64,000 bases of DNA from Schizochytrium sp. TIO01 (GCA_004764695.1 SMSO01000032.1:8526483-8590482), one strand, 5' to 3'; positions 36,221 through 55,025 are shown, counted from the stretch's first letter. Translations and numbers: made by a program. The notes: generated from the letters alone by a model not told the origin.

Positions 36221-37643
36221 ATCTGACTGGTTAGTTTCCGTGATTGCTCATGTGGCCTGCAACGAGCATTAATCTACCATTCACGACATGTCTTTAGACA
36301 GAGCAAGCAAGTTAATGACTCTCTCATATTCGGGAGGATTGCCTTCTTTCCGTATCTGCTCGCTGATGTTTGCTCTTCGTGTACTTCATTTCTCGCTACA
36401 TGGTATCAGGGAGAAAACCCATCGCTTATCATACTCCAGCCTAAATCACAAGCTCCAGGTAGCACCTGCTTCACACGGTTGCTTCCTCGCACCCAATTTT
36501 GTTCCACAATGTGTTCATCTGTCCTTTGTTGTCACACACGAGATCGCCATATTCGTGCACGCGCCTCATGTAGAATGAGGTGCGATTGCATCAAAGATCA
36601 CCTTGTGCGCTCTTCACACTAATTTTTCAAGACTCTTGTATACCACTTACACTACTTATACATCGTGGTTTAAGGAGTACACGCATGCCCAGAAGTTTCT
36701 GCTCTTATTACAAAAATATCACGATCGAGCTTCATCTTCTGAGGTCGCGTCAATTTCCTGGGCTTTGTATTGCGCAGCTATCGTGCAATGTCGCTTTGTT
36801 TCTCTTCTTCACAAACAATTGTACGTAGGCCCGTTAACTTGTTAGCTTGACTTATAAGCGCCATATAGATTCTGAGTCAGTGTCAGGTCAGTTGCTGATT
36901 TGCATCGCTTGGTATTTCACAAGCAATAGTCACCTAATGTAGCCAAACTTTACAAATAACCCTTTGTGCTAATCTATTTCTATAATCTTTTACTTTCAGT
37001 CAGCTTCTACTCGTACTAGGTTCAACAAAAGTGAATAATTATCTCTCAACAGCTCCCCAGCCTGAGCACGGCACAGATCTGAAGTACATTTATTGATTCA
37101 CAGAAATGAAATTTGCAGATACACGTCCATGTGAAGGTCTCCTCTAGCCAGCTCCGCCATCGTTTATAATAAACTATATCGAGCACGAATAATTCATATT
37201 TGTATGAAAAACCTAGCTTTGCGAACTTTGATAACCATTTGTGAGCAATATCTTCAAGCATCATCTCCTCCAATCCGCTGCTTGAAGGTTTCATGCGCAG
37301 ATTTGTACCACCTTTCTTCATGAAGAGGAGCCTAGTACTCCCTGTTACAACTACTACTAGTACCTTACTATAGGAGCAGCAGTACTAGTTGGAGCAGAGC
37401 GACGGACCTCTATTGCCTATTTACAAAAAACAATAGGAGTGAAGAATTGAAGATCAAATAAGGCTGACGCGCAGGAGCTGCGCGAGTAGAGACCATATTG
37501 AAAACATCTTCACTCAAAGAAGCTCTGAGTAGAATCGTGACGTTGGATTCCGAGCCTAGCACGCGCTGCAAAGGACTGACGTGAAGGCTCATTAGAGCTT
37601 TTGTAGACGAATAGAGAAGTGCAAAACCACGGAAAACTAGACA

Positions 37644-39171
37644 ATGGCTAACAAGCAGGACGAAGATCTGCTCGCGGTGGAGGAGGCCCTCCGTCGAGCC
37701 TCAGTCAAGATCTACGATGAGATCCAGCAGCACATTGGCTGGACCGGAGACGAAATTTGTAAGTTGAATCGCTTCTAGTTTAATGATCTGCAAGGGGTTC
37801 TTTCCTTCCGCTGATGTGGTCAGCTTCTTACCCAGGGACAAAAGAAAAGCTCACTTAGGAATGGAATGGAATGGCAATATAGAACAATCTCCTCTCTTGC
37901 GCACGACAGAATTCCAAGAAAGCAGAATGGATGACTAATGGAGATAATGAGTACGTGATTTGGGAATTTATGCAACCCACTCGTTCATGCGTTGCTGATT
38001 GAGACATGCAGCCTCTTTCATTAAGGAAAAACCTGGTCAGACCAAAACTGAGAAGGTCAATGTGAGTGGAGATAAGGTTTTGCAGCTTGACATGCTTGCT
38101 GACAAGCATGTCGAAGACGCTCTTCGTGACTGCCCTGTAGTTGCTGGATTTGCATCGGAGGAACGCGATGATTTCGTGGTGCTCAACCCTGAAGGCAAAT
38201 ATCTTGTAGTCTTTGACCCTCTCGATGGATCCCAGAACGTCCCAGTCGGAATCACTGTTGGCGCCATCTTTGGTGTCTTTGAGGCCCGCAACCTCGAGGA
38301 GGTCAACAAGGGTGACGAGATCGTTGCTGCCGGCTACGCCCTTTTCTCTTCGGCCCTTCAGTTTGCCTACTGCACCCGCACCAAGCCTGTGCATCTCAGT
38401 CAATACAGCTTTGTTGATAAGGATTGGGTGATCTTCCTCGACAATGTCCAACAGCCCAAGAAGGGTAACACGTATGCTATCAACGAAGGAAGTTGCGCCA
38501 ACTGGGATGACATCGTTGCTACATTTGTTGCTCAGCATCTCCGCGGTCGTTCAGTTCGCTGGATGTGCTGCATGGTTGCCGACGTATCTCGTCAGCTTCT
38601 TCAGGGTGGCTGCTTTCTTTACCCTGCCGACAAAAAGTACCCCAAGGGTCGTCTTCGCCTTGTATACGAAGCGGTAAGTTCAACATTGATTTCCCGTCAC
38701 TCGTGCATCCTAGTCCGCATTCAATGTTCAAGTCATTTGCGGGCTAAAAGTTTGAGGGTTCACGAGGCCTTTCGGCTCATTTGACTAACTTTTCTGTTCT
38801 GTGTATGCGATGTGCGCCCTTGTAACACTCGAAAATAATCCCAGGTCCCGCTGGCCTTCATGTGGGAGCGCGCCGGTAATGGCAAAGCATATGCCAACAT
38901 CAAGGGTGAGCGTATCCTGGATCTCCCTATCCCACATGACGACGTTCACTGCCGCTGCGGTGTTATCTTCCTGGGTGAAGACGAGGCTTCCAAATTCGAT
39001 CGCCTCCGTGAGAGTGCGCCCTCTTGGCTCGGTGGCCAACCTGAGGCCAAGGCAAAGGTTCAGAGCTCCAAGAATGAGGAGGAGGCCGTTGCAGAGACGA
39101 GCATGCTTCGGAAGGCCCTTGCTGCCTTTGCTGTAATCAACCTTGTCCTGCTCTACCGCGCCACTCGCTGA
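37644..39171 (+). CDS. FBP: Fructose-1,6-bisphosphatase class I, 3 exons (37644-37758, 38012-38673, 38845-39171; 367 aa) with a C-terminal hydrophobic tail
   Basis: Motifs NVSGDKVLQLD, SEE, FDPLDGS, NEG, MVADV, GGCFLYP, GRLRLVYEA|VPLAF. Introns 37759-38011 and 38674-38844 are both GTAAGT..CAG with matching phases; intron 2 has a GACTAAC branch point. Spliced length 1104 nt. Confidence 0.95.
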
Positions 39172-39645: not shown

Positions 39646-39746
39646 CTTGACTTGACTTGACTTGATTTGATTTGATTTAATTTGACTTGACTTGACTTGA
39701 CTTGACTTGACTTGGCTTGACTTGATTTGACTTGATTTGACTTGAC
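39646..39746. repeat. (GACTT/GATTT)n pentanucleotide repeat between the convergent FBPase and cytochrome b561 genes
   Basis: Directly visible; grades into GACGT/GACAT/GATGT variants up to ~39840. Confidence 0.9.
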
Positions 39747-40064
39747 ATGACATATGTGACGTGAAGCGACGTGAAGTGACATCACGAGACGTCACGAGAT
39801 CAAAAGGAGATGACGTGACATGATGTGATGTGGCATGACTTCAATGTGGCTTGACAGGGTTTCACAAAACCTGGACATTTTGACTGGACTCGGAGTGATT
39901 TAGCTTTGCTTGTCATCAGCTGTGAGACCTCATCTTAAACGCATGTACAACGAGCCAATACCACGATCGATGAGCGACTGTTTGCTGAAGAACAAGCCTG
40001 ACGCTCTTCAATAGTAAAATTAAAGGCATAGACCCGTGTCTTTCTGCAATCAGGTGATCCACAT

Positions 40065-40871
40065 TTAGAACCACATGCGAGCCAGAACATTCTGAGCCTT
40101 GAGCATATGCCAGGCTACAGCAGCCATGTGGAGAGGGATAACGTACTCGAGGATCTGGCCCATCTGTTTGTGCGCCTTAAATGCATTACCGGCCATCTCC
40201 TTATTAGGCTCCTCAGCTCCAGGGACCAAAATAGTATCAAAGAATGGAATACCCTTGCCACCAAAGTAGGCCATTGCGAATCCGGATCCAGGCATGGCTA
40301 CCATCATCGCGTACAGGTAGACATGGGTGATCTTAGCCATGACATGCTCAAATTTGCTGCCTTCAGGGAGAGCAGGCATGCGCTGGACGAGACGCAGACC
40401 CACGCGAGGAATGACGAGCGCAGCGACGAGCACGGCAGTTGATTTGTGGATCATCATAAGTTCGCCCTTGGAGTATCCGTACTTCTTTGGGTTTTCCTTC
40501 GGGGTCCATTGGGCCATCTTCACGGTGGCAATGCAGGTGATGAAGCCTGCCGCGATGAGCCAATGCAGAAGTACCATCGAACCAGGGTATTTGGTCGGAG
40601 TTGGCACAGAGATGGTGGTTGTACTCTGGAGACGAGACATTAGAAACCCACGCGGCTTGATGAAGAGTGCCGAGAGACCTGACATTTTGTTCGAAGCTGC
40701 CATAGACTTTGAGGCGAGGCTCTGGGCAGGTGTCGCCTTGAGCGGGGCACGGGAGCTCGTCATGCGCACAGAAATTGGGGTCACGCGAGAAACCTGGCTG
40801 TGAACTGAAGCCGCAAAGCGAGGCGCCAAAGCGGTCGCACGAGTGGCACGGAGTACAGCAGAGGCCAACAT
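40065..40871 (-). CDS. cybB: Dihaem cytochrome b561, CybB/YceJ/YodB (superoxide oxidase) family, with an N-terminal mitochondrial-type presequence
   Basis: Family pattern KY...LLHWL, IHKS, R..LRL..RMP.LP, H..LY..M..MP.SG, G..IPFF, AHK, LHMAA..WH, NVLARM; four hydrophobic helices. The first ~95 aa contain no D/E and are rich in R/S/A/T/K. Confidence 0.9.
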   Translation of the reverse strand: MLASAVLRATRATALAPRFAASVHSQVSRVTPISVRMTSSRAPLKATPAQSLASKSMAASNKMSGLSALFIKPRGFLMSRLQSTTTISVPTPTKYPGSMVLLHWLIAAGFITCIATVKMAQWTPKENPKKYGYSKGELMMIHKSTAVLVAALVIPRVGLRLVQRMPALPEGSKFEHVMAKITHVYLYAMMVAMPGSGFAMAYFGGKGIPFFDTILVPGAEEPNKEMAGNAFKAHKQMGQILEYVIPLHMAAVAWHMLKAQNVLARMWF

Positions 40872-42980
40872 TTTCCACCTACAATCAATCTCCTAAACTG
40901 CTCCTTGGTGATTAGCAGTCAAACGGTTGATCAGCAAACGCAAGCAAATGGAGAAATAAAGCTAAAAGAACTAGAAGAAGTCTCGGGGAGGCCCAGCCAG
41001 ACCAAAGCAGTGGTGGTCCTGAGGAATACGAGTCTATTCGTGTCCTCAAGTGTAACTATTCCTTCTCCAGTTGGGCCTACAAAATACTTATCTACTGGCA
41101 GCAGTAACAAAAACTGTAGTGATAGACAAACAGACACCAGGATTTTGCAGTACTTAGCCTTTAAAGCTCGTCAATGATTCACGTGTATTCGATCAAGTGT
41201 CCCGACCAGTCGTTAATGCAGATGCTTAGTTTCTTTATTCCGTTGCTTCAAGCCAAAGCTCAACCCGAGTTTGGCAACAGTCGTATTCGGACCTACTGTT
41301 TGCTCTCTTTTCTTTTTTAGCCAATTCAATGTTGACAAATAATTGTTCATTAAAAAAGCCCATGACCGAGGGACTCGGGTTCCTGAGAAGAACTCATGCA
41401 GAAGCCTCAAGGGAATACAGGCAGTATATCATGGAGATTTGCGAGGTAAGAGAGTGAGAGACTCGAATGGCGAAGATCCGCCATCTACACGACGGAAGTT
41501 CTGCTTTCGGGGGACGGGTCTTCAAGTTGGAAAAGATCTCGAGATCTTTTGCTTCTCCTATCACTCTCTATGTAGTTAGTTACCAATGATGGTACGGGAA
41601 ATGATGCACAACTTGTGCGAGAGTATCAGGAACAAAGAATCCAACGAATATTGTTGTGACAACTATTCCAAGATGACAGTTTTGGTTTAAAGAGCTGACT
41701 GTCTGATCTATGCTGCTAGCTTCTCGCTTCGCTTACTGCGTGGTTAATAATCCAGGAAAGGAAACTTAATTAGAGGTTGGCAGATAAATTTCAACTAATG
41801 GACCCGTGCTGAAAGGAATGAACGGGGGATGTCAGGACTGCAAATTTATACGCCAAGCGAGCAATTTAAAGCTAGTTCGGTCGTAGCCAATTGTATGCAA
41901 ACGGTAGTTTACATCAATGACTGACCTATTTGTGTTGAACATATGTTCGATGTAATATACCTGCTTACTTACGAAAACCTCCAATCATCCTGTAAAAACA
42001 TTTTTTCTTGAAGTGACCTTGAAATGATCTTTACACCAACAACATTGTATACAACTTTGAATACTTGTAATGCAAAATTAACGTCATCTTTCAGAAAGGA
42101 AAGGCTCTGCCAAAACGCTTGATTGCTTGCCGATCTCCAGCTTATAATCGGCGTTTTAGCTCGTTCATCTCCTTCTTGCCATCTATGTGCTGATTGACCA
42201 AATACTACCTCCAATTTGGGTATATCATTTAGCAAAAGAAACTGCGATATTTGCTCCATTCTTAGCACAGCACAGAGTCAGCTCCATCCAGATTTTTTAA
42301 TCATGACTCTGTTCTCAACTAGGAAAAAGTAATCACACTACCATCCATGACAGTGGGAGAGGAAGTCGGGGACAGAAGGATCCGTTAAACATTGGTCAGC
42401 TGTGATCGAGAAGCTTTTGAACCACCATGACATAAATTGGTTTCCTCCCCTCAAAATGTTACTGAGTTCTCGTATTTCGTACTTTGAGATCGTTCTCATG
42501 CTCCCAAAATACGCAACCCTCCTTGAGTTCGAAGGCACTGACTACTACTTAGAATAATCCAGACACTTTCAAGACTTGCAGAAGACATTTTATTTGACTA
42601 AAATCTCCATCTACTGAGGCAAGTATATAAAAGTTTTCGTAGTAATATAGTCTGACTTGAACCAGAAAGAATAACCTCTTAGTAGTGTGAGCGTAAGTTC
42701 TCTTATGGTTTGAAAAGTAAAACATAACCGTTTACCCTCGAGTTGATAAGTATAAGTCTAATATGTTGCTACTTTCTGAGGAGTCACCAACAACAAAGAT
42801 GAGATGTTCGCTTTTTTGTCTCGGCGCAAAGGCAATCATCCTGGTACTGGCAAACATTGGGAGGTAAAACCTCAATTCAAGTGGATTGGTAATATTTCAG
42901 TCTGCAACCGCGGAAGACCAAGATTAGGTGCAGGCAGGGTTATTCTGAGAACGGGGAGGGTTGCTAAAAGCAGGGAAACC

Positions 42981-50885: not shown

Positions 50886-52289
50886 TTAGAAGTCGTCTTG
50901 CGGCTGTGCATCCTTTGTTTGAAAGTGATGATTATCTCGAAATTCTGCATATAAAGTGAAGAGCACATGCAGAGGCTCGATCATACTGTTATAGACAGGA
51001 ATGTCAAGGATAGCACAAACAACTCTGGCGTAGTCCTTAAGGTCAAGGTCAATGTTGGCATCCGGCAACTTGATTTCCTTCATCAGCTGCTCTACTTGTT
51101 CTGGCCACACCTGCATCAGAGATTCAATGTCAGGCATTTGTTTTGTGTAATGAACTTGCGGAGGCGGTTTTGATCTATGGAGATCCTTAATTGAGTCAAT
51201 CCAGTTTTGCACGGCCTTGATATCCTTGTCTGCATTTTCGATTGATCTCACAATCATCGGGTTTTTAACTGATTTTTTACTGATGGCTCGCAGCTGCAAG
51301 TCAAGTACAGTTGCATCAGATTGAGTCGCTGCGGGCTCATCAAGTACTTTAAGACCAAGTTCATCGCGCTCATTATCGGGGCGAGGGACCTTAACAAATG
51401 CATCAATATCACCAACTGCGGGGATATAGTCAGGGATGAAACATCGAAGCTTGGTATCTAGTTCGATGTCATGAGGTTTATAGCGTCCAATGTATTGAAT
51501 TAATTCTTCCACCTCCTTTGAAACATCTAGTTGTGTAAAGTCGCGCGGGTCGAACCCTTCAAATCCGCTACCTTGTCCTGCTCGTCGATTTCCCGTGGAG
51601 TTGGTCATACTACTCTCGTCATCGTCATCATCATCGTCGTCATCATCATCGTCGTCATCATCGTCTCGGTTGTTTCGATTCGCCATTGCCGTCTTACTTT
51701 GTTCTGCAGCACGCTGGGCTGCATTTCGCATACTTGCATCCCCTGCTTCTAGTTTGACCCCATAGTGGCTTCGCTTATTTGGATCGGAGTCATCAGATGG
51801 ATCAGAAGGCTCCTTTTCTTCTCCATGTGATATCTTCATATTTCCAGGGATTTCCTCGTTGTCAGAGAGACCTCCAGCGCCGAGCCCTGGCGAGCTAAGT
51901 GTATTCGGAGGCGAGTCACCACGGTCAATCTCGGCGTCAAGCCGTGGGTTCTTGGGTACATTAATGCTACTGATATCTCTCATCTTCGGCGTGCTCGTCT
52001 CTTCAGTGTCAATACTTTCATCAGAAAAACTTTCATCTAGTTCGATTTGAGCGTCGTAGGGTTGGTTTTCTACTTCACGCAGTTGGAGAGTACCTTTTTC
52101 GTCTCCGCCGTTGACTGGTCTTCGTCGCGGATCTTCTACGCTTTCCGCAAAGGAAGCGTCAAAGTCCGAGTCATCATCTTCATCGTCTTCAACGCCTCCA
52201 TCGCCGTCAAATGACTGACTGCTTGATGAGCTACTTTCGTCAGAATCGTCGTCGTGCATGGCGTCGTAGTTCTGTTTCGTCTCCGCCAT
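50886..52289 (-). CDS. IFT46: Intraflagellar transport protein 46
   Basis: Conserved core YIGRYKPHDIELDTKLRCFIPDYIPAVGDIDAFVKVPRPD..LGLKVLDEP..QSDATVLDLQLR..MPDIESLMQVWP..LHVLFTLYAEF, plus an acidic N-terminal region. First ATG at 52289. Confidence 0.96.
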   Translation of the reverse strand: MAETKQNYDAMHDDDSDESSSSSSQSFDGDGGVEDDEDDDSDFDASFAESVEDPRRRPVNGGDEKGTLQLREVENQPYDAQIELDESFSDESIDTEETSTPKMRDISSINVPKNPRLDAEIDRGDSPPNTLSSPGLGAGGLSDNEEIPGNMKISHGEEKEPSDPSDDSDPNKRSHYGVKLEAGDASMRNAAQRAAEQSKTAMANRNNRDDDDDDDDDDDDDDDDESSMTNSTGNRRAGQGSGFEGFDPRDFTQLDVSKEVEELIQYIGRYKPHDIELDTKLRCFIPDYIPAVGDIDAFVKVPRPDNERDELGLKVLDEPAATQSDATVLDLQLRAISKKSVKNPMIVRSIENADKDIKAVQNWIDSIKDLHRSKPPPQVHYTKQMPDIESLMQVWPEQVEQLMKEIKLPDANIDLDLKDYARVVCAILDIPVYNSMIEPLHVLFTLYAEFRDNHHFQTKDAQPQDDF

Positions 52290-52963: not shown

Positions 52964-55025
52964 CTAACTCGTGAAAAAGTCTGCAGATACAGATAAGTTG
53001 GTAGTCTCCAATGAGCTCAGAAGTTTTGCCTGGTGTTTCGTTTTAGGAAGCTCGTGGGCAAAAAACCATTGGGACACTATTATTTTGCTATCAAGAAAAG
53101 CAACATCCTCCCGACCTGCACTCTTGGCGAGCCTTGCAGCAGTCTCTGAGACTAATAAGCGCCATGCAATTGTTGTATGGCCAGCCATGTTCAAGTACTC
53201 GTGGGAGTTTGCGAGCATTACATCTGGGTTCACTCGACCAGCATCTGCAAGAATCTTGGTTGTCTCTTCAAGACGAGTAACAGCTTGTGCAAGAAGCCCA
53301 GCTCTCATTGAGAGCTCTTCGGATTCTAAAGAAAGCGCATCTTCAACCGCGATTCGCATTGTGCGTAGCCACACTTGAAAACCACGGCCGCCCTTGAGAT
53401 GCACCTTTCGCCCGAGAAGGTCAATGGATTGAATTGCATTGGTCCCTTCGTGTATCATGTTAAGCCTATTGTCTCTGTAGTATTGTTCAACAGCATAGTC
53501 TCGTGTGTACCCGTAACCCCCGTGGACCTGGATTGCCCATTTATTAGCCTCAAGGGCCCACTCCGAGGGCCAAGATTTAATGATAGGGGTCAGTGTGTCA
53601 AGTAGCATGGATTTGTCCTCGGCTTCTTCTACTGACAGGTGGGCAGGGTCGTGCAGTTCATCCACTAGCATTGAACCCAATAGGCAAAGTGAAATTGCAC
53701 CTTCAGTGTATGCCTTTTGTGCAAGTAACATTCGTTTTACATCAGAGTGTTCAATTATCGGAACTTGACTCGAAGTAGGATCTTTAGCACTTGCAGGGCG
53801 GCCTTGACGACGATCCAGGGCGTAAGCAAGAGATGCAGCATACCCCGCATAGCCCAAAGCCGATGCGCAGATCCTGCTCATACCATCAATCGCCCACACT
53901 TTATTACGTGGTTAGTATTCAGAAACGCACGCATGTGCTGCAAAGAAGCAATCAATTCTCATCACGGAGTTTTGTGAGCGCGCCGTGATCTCTAACTTAC
54001 CCTATCGTAATGCGAGCCTCATTCATCATGAGAAACATGGCCGCAAGACCTTCACCTTCTTTCCCTACCAGCTCACCTATAGACTCTTCATTTTCGCCAT
54101 AATTCAAGACGCAGTTCGTGATACCCCGCCAACCCATCTTCTTGTTCAGCCCAGCAAGTTCGACGCCATTTTTGGGTCCAAGAGAACCATCACTGTTGAG
54201 GCGAAACTTGGGAACAATGAAAAGAGAAATACCCTTTACGCCAGCAGGAGTCTGGTTTGGGTGATCCGGGTTGCTAACTTTCGCCAAAACCATGTGCACG
54301 ATATTTTCTGACAGAGGTTGCTCGCCACCAGAAATCCACATTTTGGTTCCTTTGATTGAGTAAGTTCCGTCTCCACGAGGAAACGCTTTGCAAACAATAT
54401 CCCCAAGACTTGACCCTGCTTGGGGCTCACTGAGGTTCATCGTGCCATAAAACCGTCCTTCCAGCATAGGCAAAAGGTACTTCTCCTTCTGCTTTTGGTT
54501 GCCCACAGCATTCAACATGTTCCCAGCAGCGATGGTGAGAAAAGGAAATGTCGCAGTGCCTACATTTGCAGCGTATATGGGCAAAAGAAGTGCATTAGTG
54601 ATCACCGAAGGCAGTTGCATACCACCCATCTCATAATCGGCGTGGGCACTGAAGAATCCAGCTTCACGGAAGGCTTCTAATGCCGGTTTGACAAAGTCGT
54701 TCATCTTGACTTCACCTCCATCAACGAATTTGGGCTCGTCGAGATCGTTTTTGCGATTATGAGGAGCAAAGTCATTTTCAGCAAGCTTTAAGGCAGTTGC
54801 AAGAGCATCGTCGAACAAGTCTCGCGACGCGTCGCGATAACGAGGTACCTTTTCAAAAAGATTCTTCTCCACATCAAGAACATCAAAAAGCTGAAATCTT
54901 AGGTTCTTTTCGTCCGCGTACAAGTTGATATTTGCAGAGTTCGAGGCCTGTCGAACAAGAGACAGCCGAGCCTGTTTCTGTGTCAAACCTCCAAGTCGCC
55001 TTGAGTTCAACTTAAATAGAAACAT
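52964..55025 (-). CDS. Acyl-CoA dehydrogenase, long bacterial-type (FadE5/DmdC-like clade), 2 exons (55025-54001, 53873-52964; 644 aa), mitochondrial-type presequence
   Basis: Motifs GTMNLSEPQAGSSL, IKGTKMWISGG, KGISLFIVPK, MFLMMNEAR, IQVHGGYGY, YRDNRLNMIHEGTNAIQ. Intron 54000-53874 (GTAAGT..CAG, phase 2) joins EARITIG|ICASALGY. Spliced length 1935 nt. Confidence 0.95.

Follow-up and report, generated by a model that had tools for sequence, protein, structure and literature searches.

A bacterial-type dihaem cytochrome b561 of a thraustochytrid and the eukaryote-wide, probably mitochondrial clade around it

The window analyzed here, a 64,000-nucleotide stretch of the genome of Schizochytrium sp. 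TIO01 (GCA_004764695.1 SMSO01000032.1:8526483-8590482), carries on its minus strand an intronless gene for a protein of 268 amino acids that was assigned, by sequence and predicted fold, to the bacterial cytochrome b561 family and not to the superoxide oxidase CybB in the strict sense. New here is the eukaryote-wide, probably mitochondrial b561 clade to which it belongs, whose quinone site appears to be kept and whose haem-2 face appears to have been rebuilt into a strongly cationic one. The gene, its transcript, the fold, the histidines of the haems and of the quinone site, and the clade are established. We propose that this bacterial-type clade may function as a reversible superoxide/O2:ubiquinone oxidoreductase of the mitochondrial inner membrane, a reading whose chances we consider even.

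A transcribed protist gene and its eukaryotic clade

RNA-derived contigs from four runs of four studies cross the CybB-like open reading frame (ORF) without a joint, and in all four runs they skip two GT..AG introns of the adjacent FBPase gene. The runs are labelled guessed RNA or unknown; they were treated as RNA because the introns of this neighbour are spliced out in them, and for the CybB-like ORF the contigs carry no information on strand or expression level. The ORF is transcribed and unspliced, which bears out the intronless 268-residue reading frame of the original prediction, and the transcriptome-sourced protein P0006 has the same length with a single difference (F76S), a variant also present at position 40645 in the contigs of two runs. 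Met1 is likely the start of translation, since the transcribed bases upstream of it hold no ATG over 422 bases in all four contigs, or over 442 bases in two of them, where 7.6 and 8.2 would be expected, respectively; Met1 is thus favoured over a downstream methionine, which had been named as a finding that would speak against the prediction. The longest contigs extend to two upstream ATGs at 41350 and 41363. Moreover, the first 11 residues are conserved in the protein of Hondaea fermentalgiana, while the remaining leader is divergent; one database record of the same gene (P0007), however, begins at Met63. A hidden intron or upstream exon altering the N-terminus was considered and rejected: a branch-point-like motif lies upstream of the ATG, but no contig has a joint there.

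Because the nearest named relative is that of the thraustochytrid Hondaea (56% identity across the whole length) and the window also holds genes for FBPase, an RCC1-repeat protein, IFT46, an acyl-CoA dehydrogenase and an NBR1-like protein, the gene is a nuclear one and its host a thraustochytrid-like protist. A bacterial contaminant or a recent transfer was likewise rejected, given the spliced neighbours, IFT46 and the other eukaryotic genes of the window, a best bacterial identity of ~31% and the long stem of the clade.

Over residues 95-267 the protein matches PF01292 in HMMER with 77.4 bits against a cut-off of 30.1, covering profile positions 2-177 of 179, in agreement with the family that had been predicted. 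This prokaryotic family is the only Pfam match at E ≤ 0.1, with none to the eukaryotic cytochrome b561 family, and the claimed distinction from the ascorbate-dependent CYB561 proteins (chromaffin granule b561, Dcytb, plant CYBDOM) holds: these are alike in name, in two b haems and in transmembrane electron transfer, whereas the protein described here matches PF01292 only, has four helices and bears a presequence-like leader. The only solved relative found by sequence is E. coli CybB (5oc0), with E 6.6e-11 for the protein and 1.4e-23 for a 69-row profile. The AlphaFold2 model consists of four long helices with a mean predicted local distance difference test score of 83, above 89 from residue 91 on and low in the leader. 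Its best Foldseek match is again 5oc0 (E 1.2e-6), the sole one at E ≤ 0.001 among the 343 matches listed, and VIA-align gave 5oc0 a Z-score of 19.9 (root-mean-square deviation 2.3, 169 residues aligned), as compared to 12.6 for HyaC and 11.6 for FdnI. All six histidines of the predicted four-helix dihaem cytochrome are present (H103, H142, H183, H234, H248 and H255). The profile of the eukaryotic clade gave CybB 86.4, YodB 81.8, YceJ 80.7, HyaC 10.1 and FdnI -1.2 bits, and identity amounts to 21-26% with the CybB paralogues (26% with CybB itself) versus 15-17% with HyaC and FdnI.

While the observation of the gene was confirmed, the original prediction had missed the large eukaryote-wide clade around it. 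Searched with a profile of five close relatives, a set of 1.84 billion representatives yielded 121 at E ≤ 1e-30 and 4003 at E ≤ 0.001, and 150 of the 4003 matches were listed. Among 24 relatives looked up, nine carry an organism name, three more come from eukaryotic transcriptome sets and none is named after a prokaryote; the two Atlas clusters listed are 100% eukaryotic. The named relatives are from Hondaea, Aphanomyces astaci, Astrosyne radiata, Chromera velia, Nephroselmis pyriformis, Ancoracysta twista, Dracoamoeba jomungandri, Barroeca monosierra and Stephanoeca diplocostata. Lineages were confirmed for four of them (Stramenopiles, Provora, Amoebozoa, Opisthokonta); for the remainder, the green alga, Chromera and others, we assume the commonly held placement. 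For the trees, 72 clade rows were used (69 full-length rows picked by hand and three added), mostly eukaryotic by placement and not by name. In FastTree, with 224 rows (the 72 clade rows, 150 bacterial rows and two outgroups), the clade formed one branch with a support of 99, and in IQ-TREE under a mixture model with 64 rows the 24 clade rows stood together at 100/100 on a long stem, with a bootstrap that had not fully settled. Since similarity guided the selection of the clade rows, a degree of clustering would be seen in any case; the weight lies on the finding that named members from distant supergroups group together. To our knowledge, the clade is absent from animals, yeast and land plants.

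The phylogeny upheld a eukaryotic clade, and neither tree, with two proteobacterial classes sampled, gave this clade a supported bacterial sister. No best bacterial match from 602 genomes of these classes falls inside the clade, and E. coli YceJ forms a small group of its own, apart from the clade in both trees, on a poorly resolved backbone. The branching within the clade departs from eukaryote phylogeny (the two choanoflagellates stand apart), which 176 columns may not resolve; its history may reflect one ancient origin or later spread between eukaryotes, and its origin may be endosymbiotic or lateral. An alphaproteobacterial, i.e., endosymbiotic, origin was tried and is not shown: among 301 genomes from the same class as G001 the best profile score was 140.5 bits, with matches in 150 genomes, and among 301 from the same class as G004 it was 136.2 bits, with matches in 190; the bacterial tallies include the unpublished genomes G044 and G343, on which no other result depends. 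Scans with patterns from the eukaryotic alignment found relatives in none of 125 genome-contig stretches and none of 63 viral contigs. Many of the best alphaproteobacterial matches (loci L092-L121) come from small genomes of 1.2-2.6 Mb and 18 of these 30 loci have no YceI-like neighbour; they may represent a stand-alone b561 type.

In the literature searched, which covered few subscription journals, no description of a mitochondrial or eukaryote-wide CybB-like family was found. Main-text term searches of PMC7050145, PMC13632651 and PMC12699882 gave no match to the clade, and the b561-domain protein in the accessible part of PMC11018031 is unrelated to it. Automatic annotations as superoxide oxidase (EC 1.10.3.17) in three diatoms, for which assays were called for, are given in the available part of PMC10128935; these are CybB-like eukaryotic genes too, likened here by annotation only, but come there without location, phylogeny, residues or assay. 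UniRef names the Hondaea, Aphanomyces and Chromera proteins after their domain. No b561/PF01292 record occurs in the searched parts of supplements on Andalucia, Acanthamoeba, Euglena, diplonemids and CoMR, which shows neither absence nor presence. Dracoamoeba is classed in the same family as Acanthamoeba, and therefore the Acanthamoeba proteome tables beyond the searched part could hold a clade member.

The leader and the residues at the two haems

Y95 is preceded by 94 residues without Asp or Glu (S16 A15 T10 L9 R8, 13 K+R), so that the predicted acid-free leader of ~95 residues rich in R, S, A and T is indeed there, and the first acid of the protein is E126. At the D+E frequency of 0.125 found in eight other window ORFs, an acid-free run of 92 residues has a P of ~5e-6. 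A candidate cleavage site may lie near RLQ/ST at residues 80-84. For the targeting test we used a heuristic of our own and not TargetP, which calls for a net charge of +2 or more and no more than a single acid among the first 20 residues. Of the 150 matches listed, 112 reach the first haem histidine, and 111 of those begin with Met, including 91 whose leaders count at least 20 residues; 80 of these 91 pass the test, as compared to 19% of 3979 internal 20-mers from window proteins. The test is weak for a single protein and strong only at the family level. Moreover, the motif R-x-[FLYM]-[SA]-[STA], which we take to be a site of the matrix peptidase and which was chosen after the leaders had been inspected, occurs in 36 of the 91 leaders versus a mean of 7.0 and a maximum of 16 in 1000 shuffles. 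None of 67 leaders has a signal-peptide-like hydrophobic stretch. The clade helices are less hydrophobic than the bacterial ones (1.2-1.6 vs. 1.6-2.8), and prolines were gained in helices 2 and 4 (0.85 and 0.83 per helix vs. 0.00-0.04); low hydrophobicity and helix prolines are features of those inner-membrane proteins that, after import, enter the membrane from the matrix side. Taken at the family level, the leaders strongly suggest the mitochondrial targeting that had been predicted, and the clade protein is very probably mitochondrial.

Leader length ranges from 6 to 133 residues across the clade. The N-termini of P0064, P0086, P0042 and P0061, among them the Astrosyne protein, are shorter than 10 residues and represent truncated calls or presequence-less forms. 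P0156, a divergent clade member, has a 133-residue leader that resembles a coiled coil with a hydrophobic stretch, unlike a presequence.

Residue columns were counted over the 72 clade rows and 150 bacterial rows, with 102 CybB orthologues among the comparisons. The CybB quinone site is made up of H87, H151 and H158 together with D164 (PMC11869295, in the sections available, as for all points from this source). Since the haem histidines and the columns of H87, H158, R59 (71/72), R63 (66/72) and R169 (68/72) are kept, the clade likely has a quinone site. The superoxide site of CybB comprises R30, R35, R38, R108 and K134 (PMC11869295); at these positions the Schizochytrium protein has A120, K125, K135, G204 and F231, and K or R is found in 4%, 19%, 92%, 0% and 1% of the clade, respectively, so that the R38 column is the only one kept. 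Other lysines of the protein stand 1-4 columns off the missing positions, and in the clade lysines occupy columns 46, 110, 135 and 138 instead, in 86%, 69%, 44% and 71% of rows. The haem-2 face carries on average 10.3 K+R in the 72 clade rows, 5.2 in the 102 CybB orthologues, 5.3 in a set of 73 further bacterial rows and 4.4 in another set of 68. In CybB, overall charge outweighed residue type, and Arg-to-Lys changes left the activity unchanged (PMC11869295). In a subgroup that branches early in the clade (P0089, P0092, P0131, P0154, P0160 and P0162), Glu and not Lys follows the second haem histidine.

The proposed reaction, its direction and its rivals

Following this, we propose that the basic leader would act as a presequence, cleaved after import, and that the weakly hydrophobic, proline-bearing helices would enter the matrix and be inserted into the inner membrane from there. 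Ubiquinone would bind at haem 1 via H183 and H255, the rebuilt lysine set at haem 2 (K135, K143, K206, K232 and K235) would gather an anion, most likely superoxide, and the two haems would carry electrons across the membrane. A CybB-like function with superoxide/O2 as the partner has, judged from these residues, about the same chance of being right as of being wrong.

The direction of such a reaction would depend on orientation. The E. coli orientation is defined here as the N-terminus in the matrix and the haem-2 face in the intermembrane space. The mitochondrial membrane potential amounts to 150-180 mV, and the O2/superoxide couple was calculated at ~+176 mV for 50 µM O2 and 1e-10 M superoxide. 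The forward reaction of CybB opposes the proton motive force and is limited to ~100 mV (PMC11869295), and with plentiful oxygen the reverse reaction has been called 'more likely' (10.1101/2021.12.23.473985, in the part available). In the E. coli orientation the reaction would be reversed at high membrane potential, and net scavenging would therefore call for little oxygen or for an inverted protein. The predicted return of superoxide electrons to the quinone pool is thus thermodynamically doubtful above ~100 mV in the E. coli orientation (PMC11869295). In this orientation, superoxide would be scavenged only when oxygen or the potential is low or superoxide is high, and under other conditions quinol electrons would leak to oxygen or another acceptor; in the flipped orientation matrix superoxide would be scavenged continuously.

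The clade has lost the bacterial positive-inside bias: the K+R count of the bacterial cytoplasmic face exceeds that of the haem-2 face in 101 of 102 CybB orthologues and in 139 of the 141 remaining bacterial rows, but in only 14 of 72 clade rows, and it is the lower one in 48 of the 72, a result stable to boundary shifts of up to 3 residues. Because the K+R bias and D164 are lost and the predicted mature N-tails are net acidic (19/29), it can be envisaged that early eukaryotes acquired a bacterial b561, kept it across Amorphea and Diaphoretickes, and inverted it, such that electrons of matrix superoxide would pass to ubiquinone on the outer side. Such an arrangement would act as a sink for superoxide that forms no H2O2 and is coupled to respiration, and it would solve the thermodynamic problem of E. 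coli CybB. Against inversion, the Schizochytrium protein itself shows a tie of 8 vs. 8 K+R with 6 acids on the haem-2 face vs. 2 on the other, the net-charge bias is bacterial-like in 58% of clade rows, and the extra lysines of the haem-2 face may simply be an anion antenna. We consider that the E. coli orientation was probably kept and that an inverted clade protein is rather unlikely; the inverted scavenger in full, as drawn from sequence comparison, is a distinctly doubtful scenario.

Several observations weigh against the reversible superoxide/O2:ubiquinone oxidoreductase proposed above. The protein reaches 53.1 bits with the CybB equivalog NCBIfam PRK11513, below the cut-off of 170. R30, R108 and K134, nearly lost from the clade as counted above, are kept in 100-102 of the 102 CybB orthologues, and D164, the partner of H158, is lost from the clade, while Asp fills this column in 133 of 150 bacterial rows and all 102 CybB orthologues; in E. 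coli CybB, D164A retained 50-80% of the activity with a ~12-fold higher Km (PMC11869295). The net charge of the haem-2 face, 5.6 in the clade, is an unvalidated marker of superoxide use, as it fails to separate true CybB (0.3) from YceI-adjacent proteins (0.7). The free trees keep the clade apart from CybB/YodB; the union of both was not rejected in the approximately unbiased test (p-AU 0.45). As regards targeting, three of eight other window ORFs, including the acyl-CoA dehydrogenase, also pass the charge test, the Schizochytrium leader has no exact match to the R-x-[FLYM]-[SA]-[STA] motif, and 20 of the 111 Met-starting matches listed, including the diatom Astrosyne protein, have leaders of fewer than 20 residues, which may be truncated gene calls or real. 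Finally, the role that CybB itself plays in the cell and the direction in which it runs are described as unsettled, with a knockout that has no growth phenotype, in the available part of 10.1101/2021.12.23.473985.

The label 'superoxide oxidase' goes too far for this protein because the CybB cut-off was failed, R30, R108, K134 and D164 are missing, CybB, YodB and YceJ score about alike with the clade profile and the clade has no resolved bacterial sister; the superoxide oxidase identity of the original prediction, with three of five superoxide-site residues gone in addition to D164, was accordingly not established. What is alike in E. coli CybB (PDB 5OC0) is the fold, the four haem histidines, H87, H158, R59, R63, R169, a basic residue at R38 and a cationic haem-2 face. 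Apart from the residues not kept, the differences are a one-residue deletion at H159 in the Schizochytrium protein, a doubled number of haem-2 K+R in other columns and the lost positive-inside bias in the clade, and a 94-residue presequence-like leader on the product of a nuclear eukaryotic gene.

The rival that survives best, and one we regard as possible, is that the protein oxidizes quinol in the mitochondrial inner membrane for a partner that is not superoxide: it may deliver electrons from the quinone pool across the membrane for the repair of lipid peroxyl damage, like LcoA/YceJ, or for the reduction of another anion, a metal or an acidic protein, with the lysines binding this partner or cardiolipin. 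Lipocalin-associated LcoA is a b561 with a proposed role in lipid-peroxyl repair, and its mutants show raised lipid peroxidation (PMC9113575, available part). YceJ/LcoA, which is associated with the lipocalin YceI/BcnA, is alike in family, in the histidines, in the HKS at the second haem ligand and in lacking the CybB triad; the K of this HKS column is found in 86% of the clade and 100% of YceI-adjacent bacterial proteins versus 0% of CybB. The YceJ profile score comes near that of CybB, and quinol-to-outside electron flow would be favoured at high potential. Furthermore, a YceI-like gene adjoins 12 of the 30 best alphaproteobacterial and 8 of the 30 best gammaproteobacterial matches, and 53 of 80 loci in another bacterial set, but 18 and 22 of the best matches in the two classes have no YceI-like gene within ~1.5 kb. 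As to differences from YceJ/LcoA, a fusion to a YceI-like lipocalin occurs nowhere among 156 clade proteins, and D164 is lost; the net charge of the haem-2 face is -3 in YceJ vs. +4 in the Schizochytrium protein, and 5.6 in the clade vs. 0.7 in YceI-adjacent proteins.

A location outside mitochondria, i.e., the plastid in algae, a peroxisomal or secretory membrane, or a start at a downstream Met without a targeting signal, is improbable. Beside the short leaders and the Met63 start of P0007, a search of the Atlas with residues 1-92 alone, which gave no usable look-alike, speaks in its favour. However, no ATG precedes Met1 over 422-442 transcribed bases, the 11 residues that begin with it are conserved in Hondaea, and even translation from Met63 or Met78 would yield a basic acid-free leader. 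Hydrophobic leaders are lacking among the 67, and a quinone site requires a quinone-bearing membrane. In addition, the same type of leader occurs in choanoflagellates, an amoebozoan and thraustochytrids, relatives which are presumably free of plastids. A role in anchoring a larger oxidoreductase to the membrane, as the cytochrome b subunits of [NiFe]-hydrogenase and formate dehydrogenase do, is hardly credible: PF01292 and the four haem histidines are common to all of them and HyaC and FdnI are the second and third fold matches, but their Z-scores, profile scores and identities fall far below those of CybB and its paralogues, both lack the H87 and H158 columns kept by the clade, and the neighbours in the window are FBPase and the RCC1-repeat protein, so that a grouping with these cytochromes, named beforehand as refuting, is ruled against.

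Features of the window and significance of the clade

Table 1. Positions of the CybB-like gene, its parts and neighbouring features, counted from the first base of the window
Feature	Position	Strand	Basis or remark
Coding sequence, 268 residues, ATG start, intronless	40065..40871	minus	ORF reading, contigs, near-identical transcriptome-sourced protein P0006
Transcribed ATG-free stretch, likely 5' untranslated leader	40872..41293	minus	contigs end at 41293-41376
Residues 1-94, basic acid-free leader, predicted mitochondrial presequence	40590..40871	minus	composition, family-level leader statistics
Residues 95-268, four-helix dihaem cytochrome b561 core (PF01292)	40068..40589	minus	Pfam, predicted model, fold match
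H103 (CybB H13), presumed haem ligand	40563..40565	minus	72/72 clade, 150/150 bacterial rows
H142 (CybB H45), presumed haem ligand	40446..40448	minus	72/72 clade rows
H234 (CybB H137), presumed haem ligand	40170..40172	minus	72/72 clade rows
H248 (CybB H151), ligand of haem 1	40128..40130	minus	72/72 clade rows; role from PMC11869295
H183 (CybB H87), quinone-site proton donor	40323..40325	minus	70/72 clade rows; role from PMC11869295
H255 (CybB H158), quinone-site proton donor	40107..40109	minus	65/72 clade rows; role from PMC11869295
Q260, replacing CybB D164 (H158 partner)	40092..40094	minus	clade Q 34/72, H 17/72
Loop between helices 1 and 2, ~residues 116-141, lysine-rich haem-2 face	40449..40526	minus	K135 at the R38 column
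Loop between helices 3 and 4, ~residues 200-233, haem-2 face	40173..40274	minus	K206 and K232; K235 next
FBPase gene, convergent with the CybB-like gene	37542-39171	plus	GT..AG introns 37759-38011 and ~38673-38843
Tandem array of a 5-base unit, 21 copies	39646-39751		between the 3' ends of the FBPase and CybB-like genes
RCC1-repeat protein, 1328 residues	42804-46790	plus	long C-terminal part without Pfam match
IFT46 gene	50886-52289	minus	E 1e-92
Acyl-CoA dehydrogenase, two consecutive ORFs	52964-55025	minus	probably intron-split, presequence-like leader

The end of the last FBPase exon encodes a hydrophobic stretch and, behind it, basic residues (~39100-39171), an arrangement which resembles a C-terminal membrane anchor and is unusual for FBPase. 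In the region of the 5-base array, ~47 bases are missing in the contigs of two runs. The contigs of three runs start near 42833-42884 in the RCC1-repeat gene, where a later Met may be the true start. The IFT46 gene points to a flagellated stage.

In the textbook view, dismutation to H2O2 is the sole route by which mitochondria dispose of superoxide, and side branches of the quinone pool are known mostly from animals, yeast and plants. If the reading proposed here holds true, the clade would represent an overlooked, probably ancient branch of protist respiration or of the handling of reactive oxygen species, reaching from choanoflagellates and amoebozoans to green algae, alveolates, stramenopiles and Provora. 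Moreover, it bears on the open question of the direction in which CybB works in the living membrane, because the mitochondrial potential is high enough that orientation would decide between a scavenger and a source of superoxide. The Schizochytrium protein is small, it is encoded by a single exon and the set of assays is published for CybB. Thraustochytrids, in turn, are experimentally tractable, produce lipids and are organisms for which oxidative stress is of importance.
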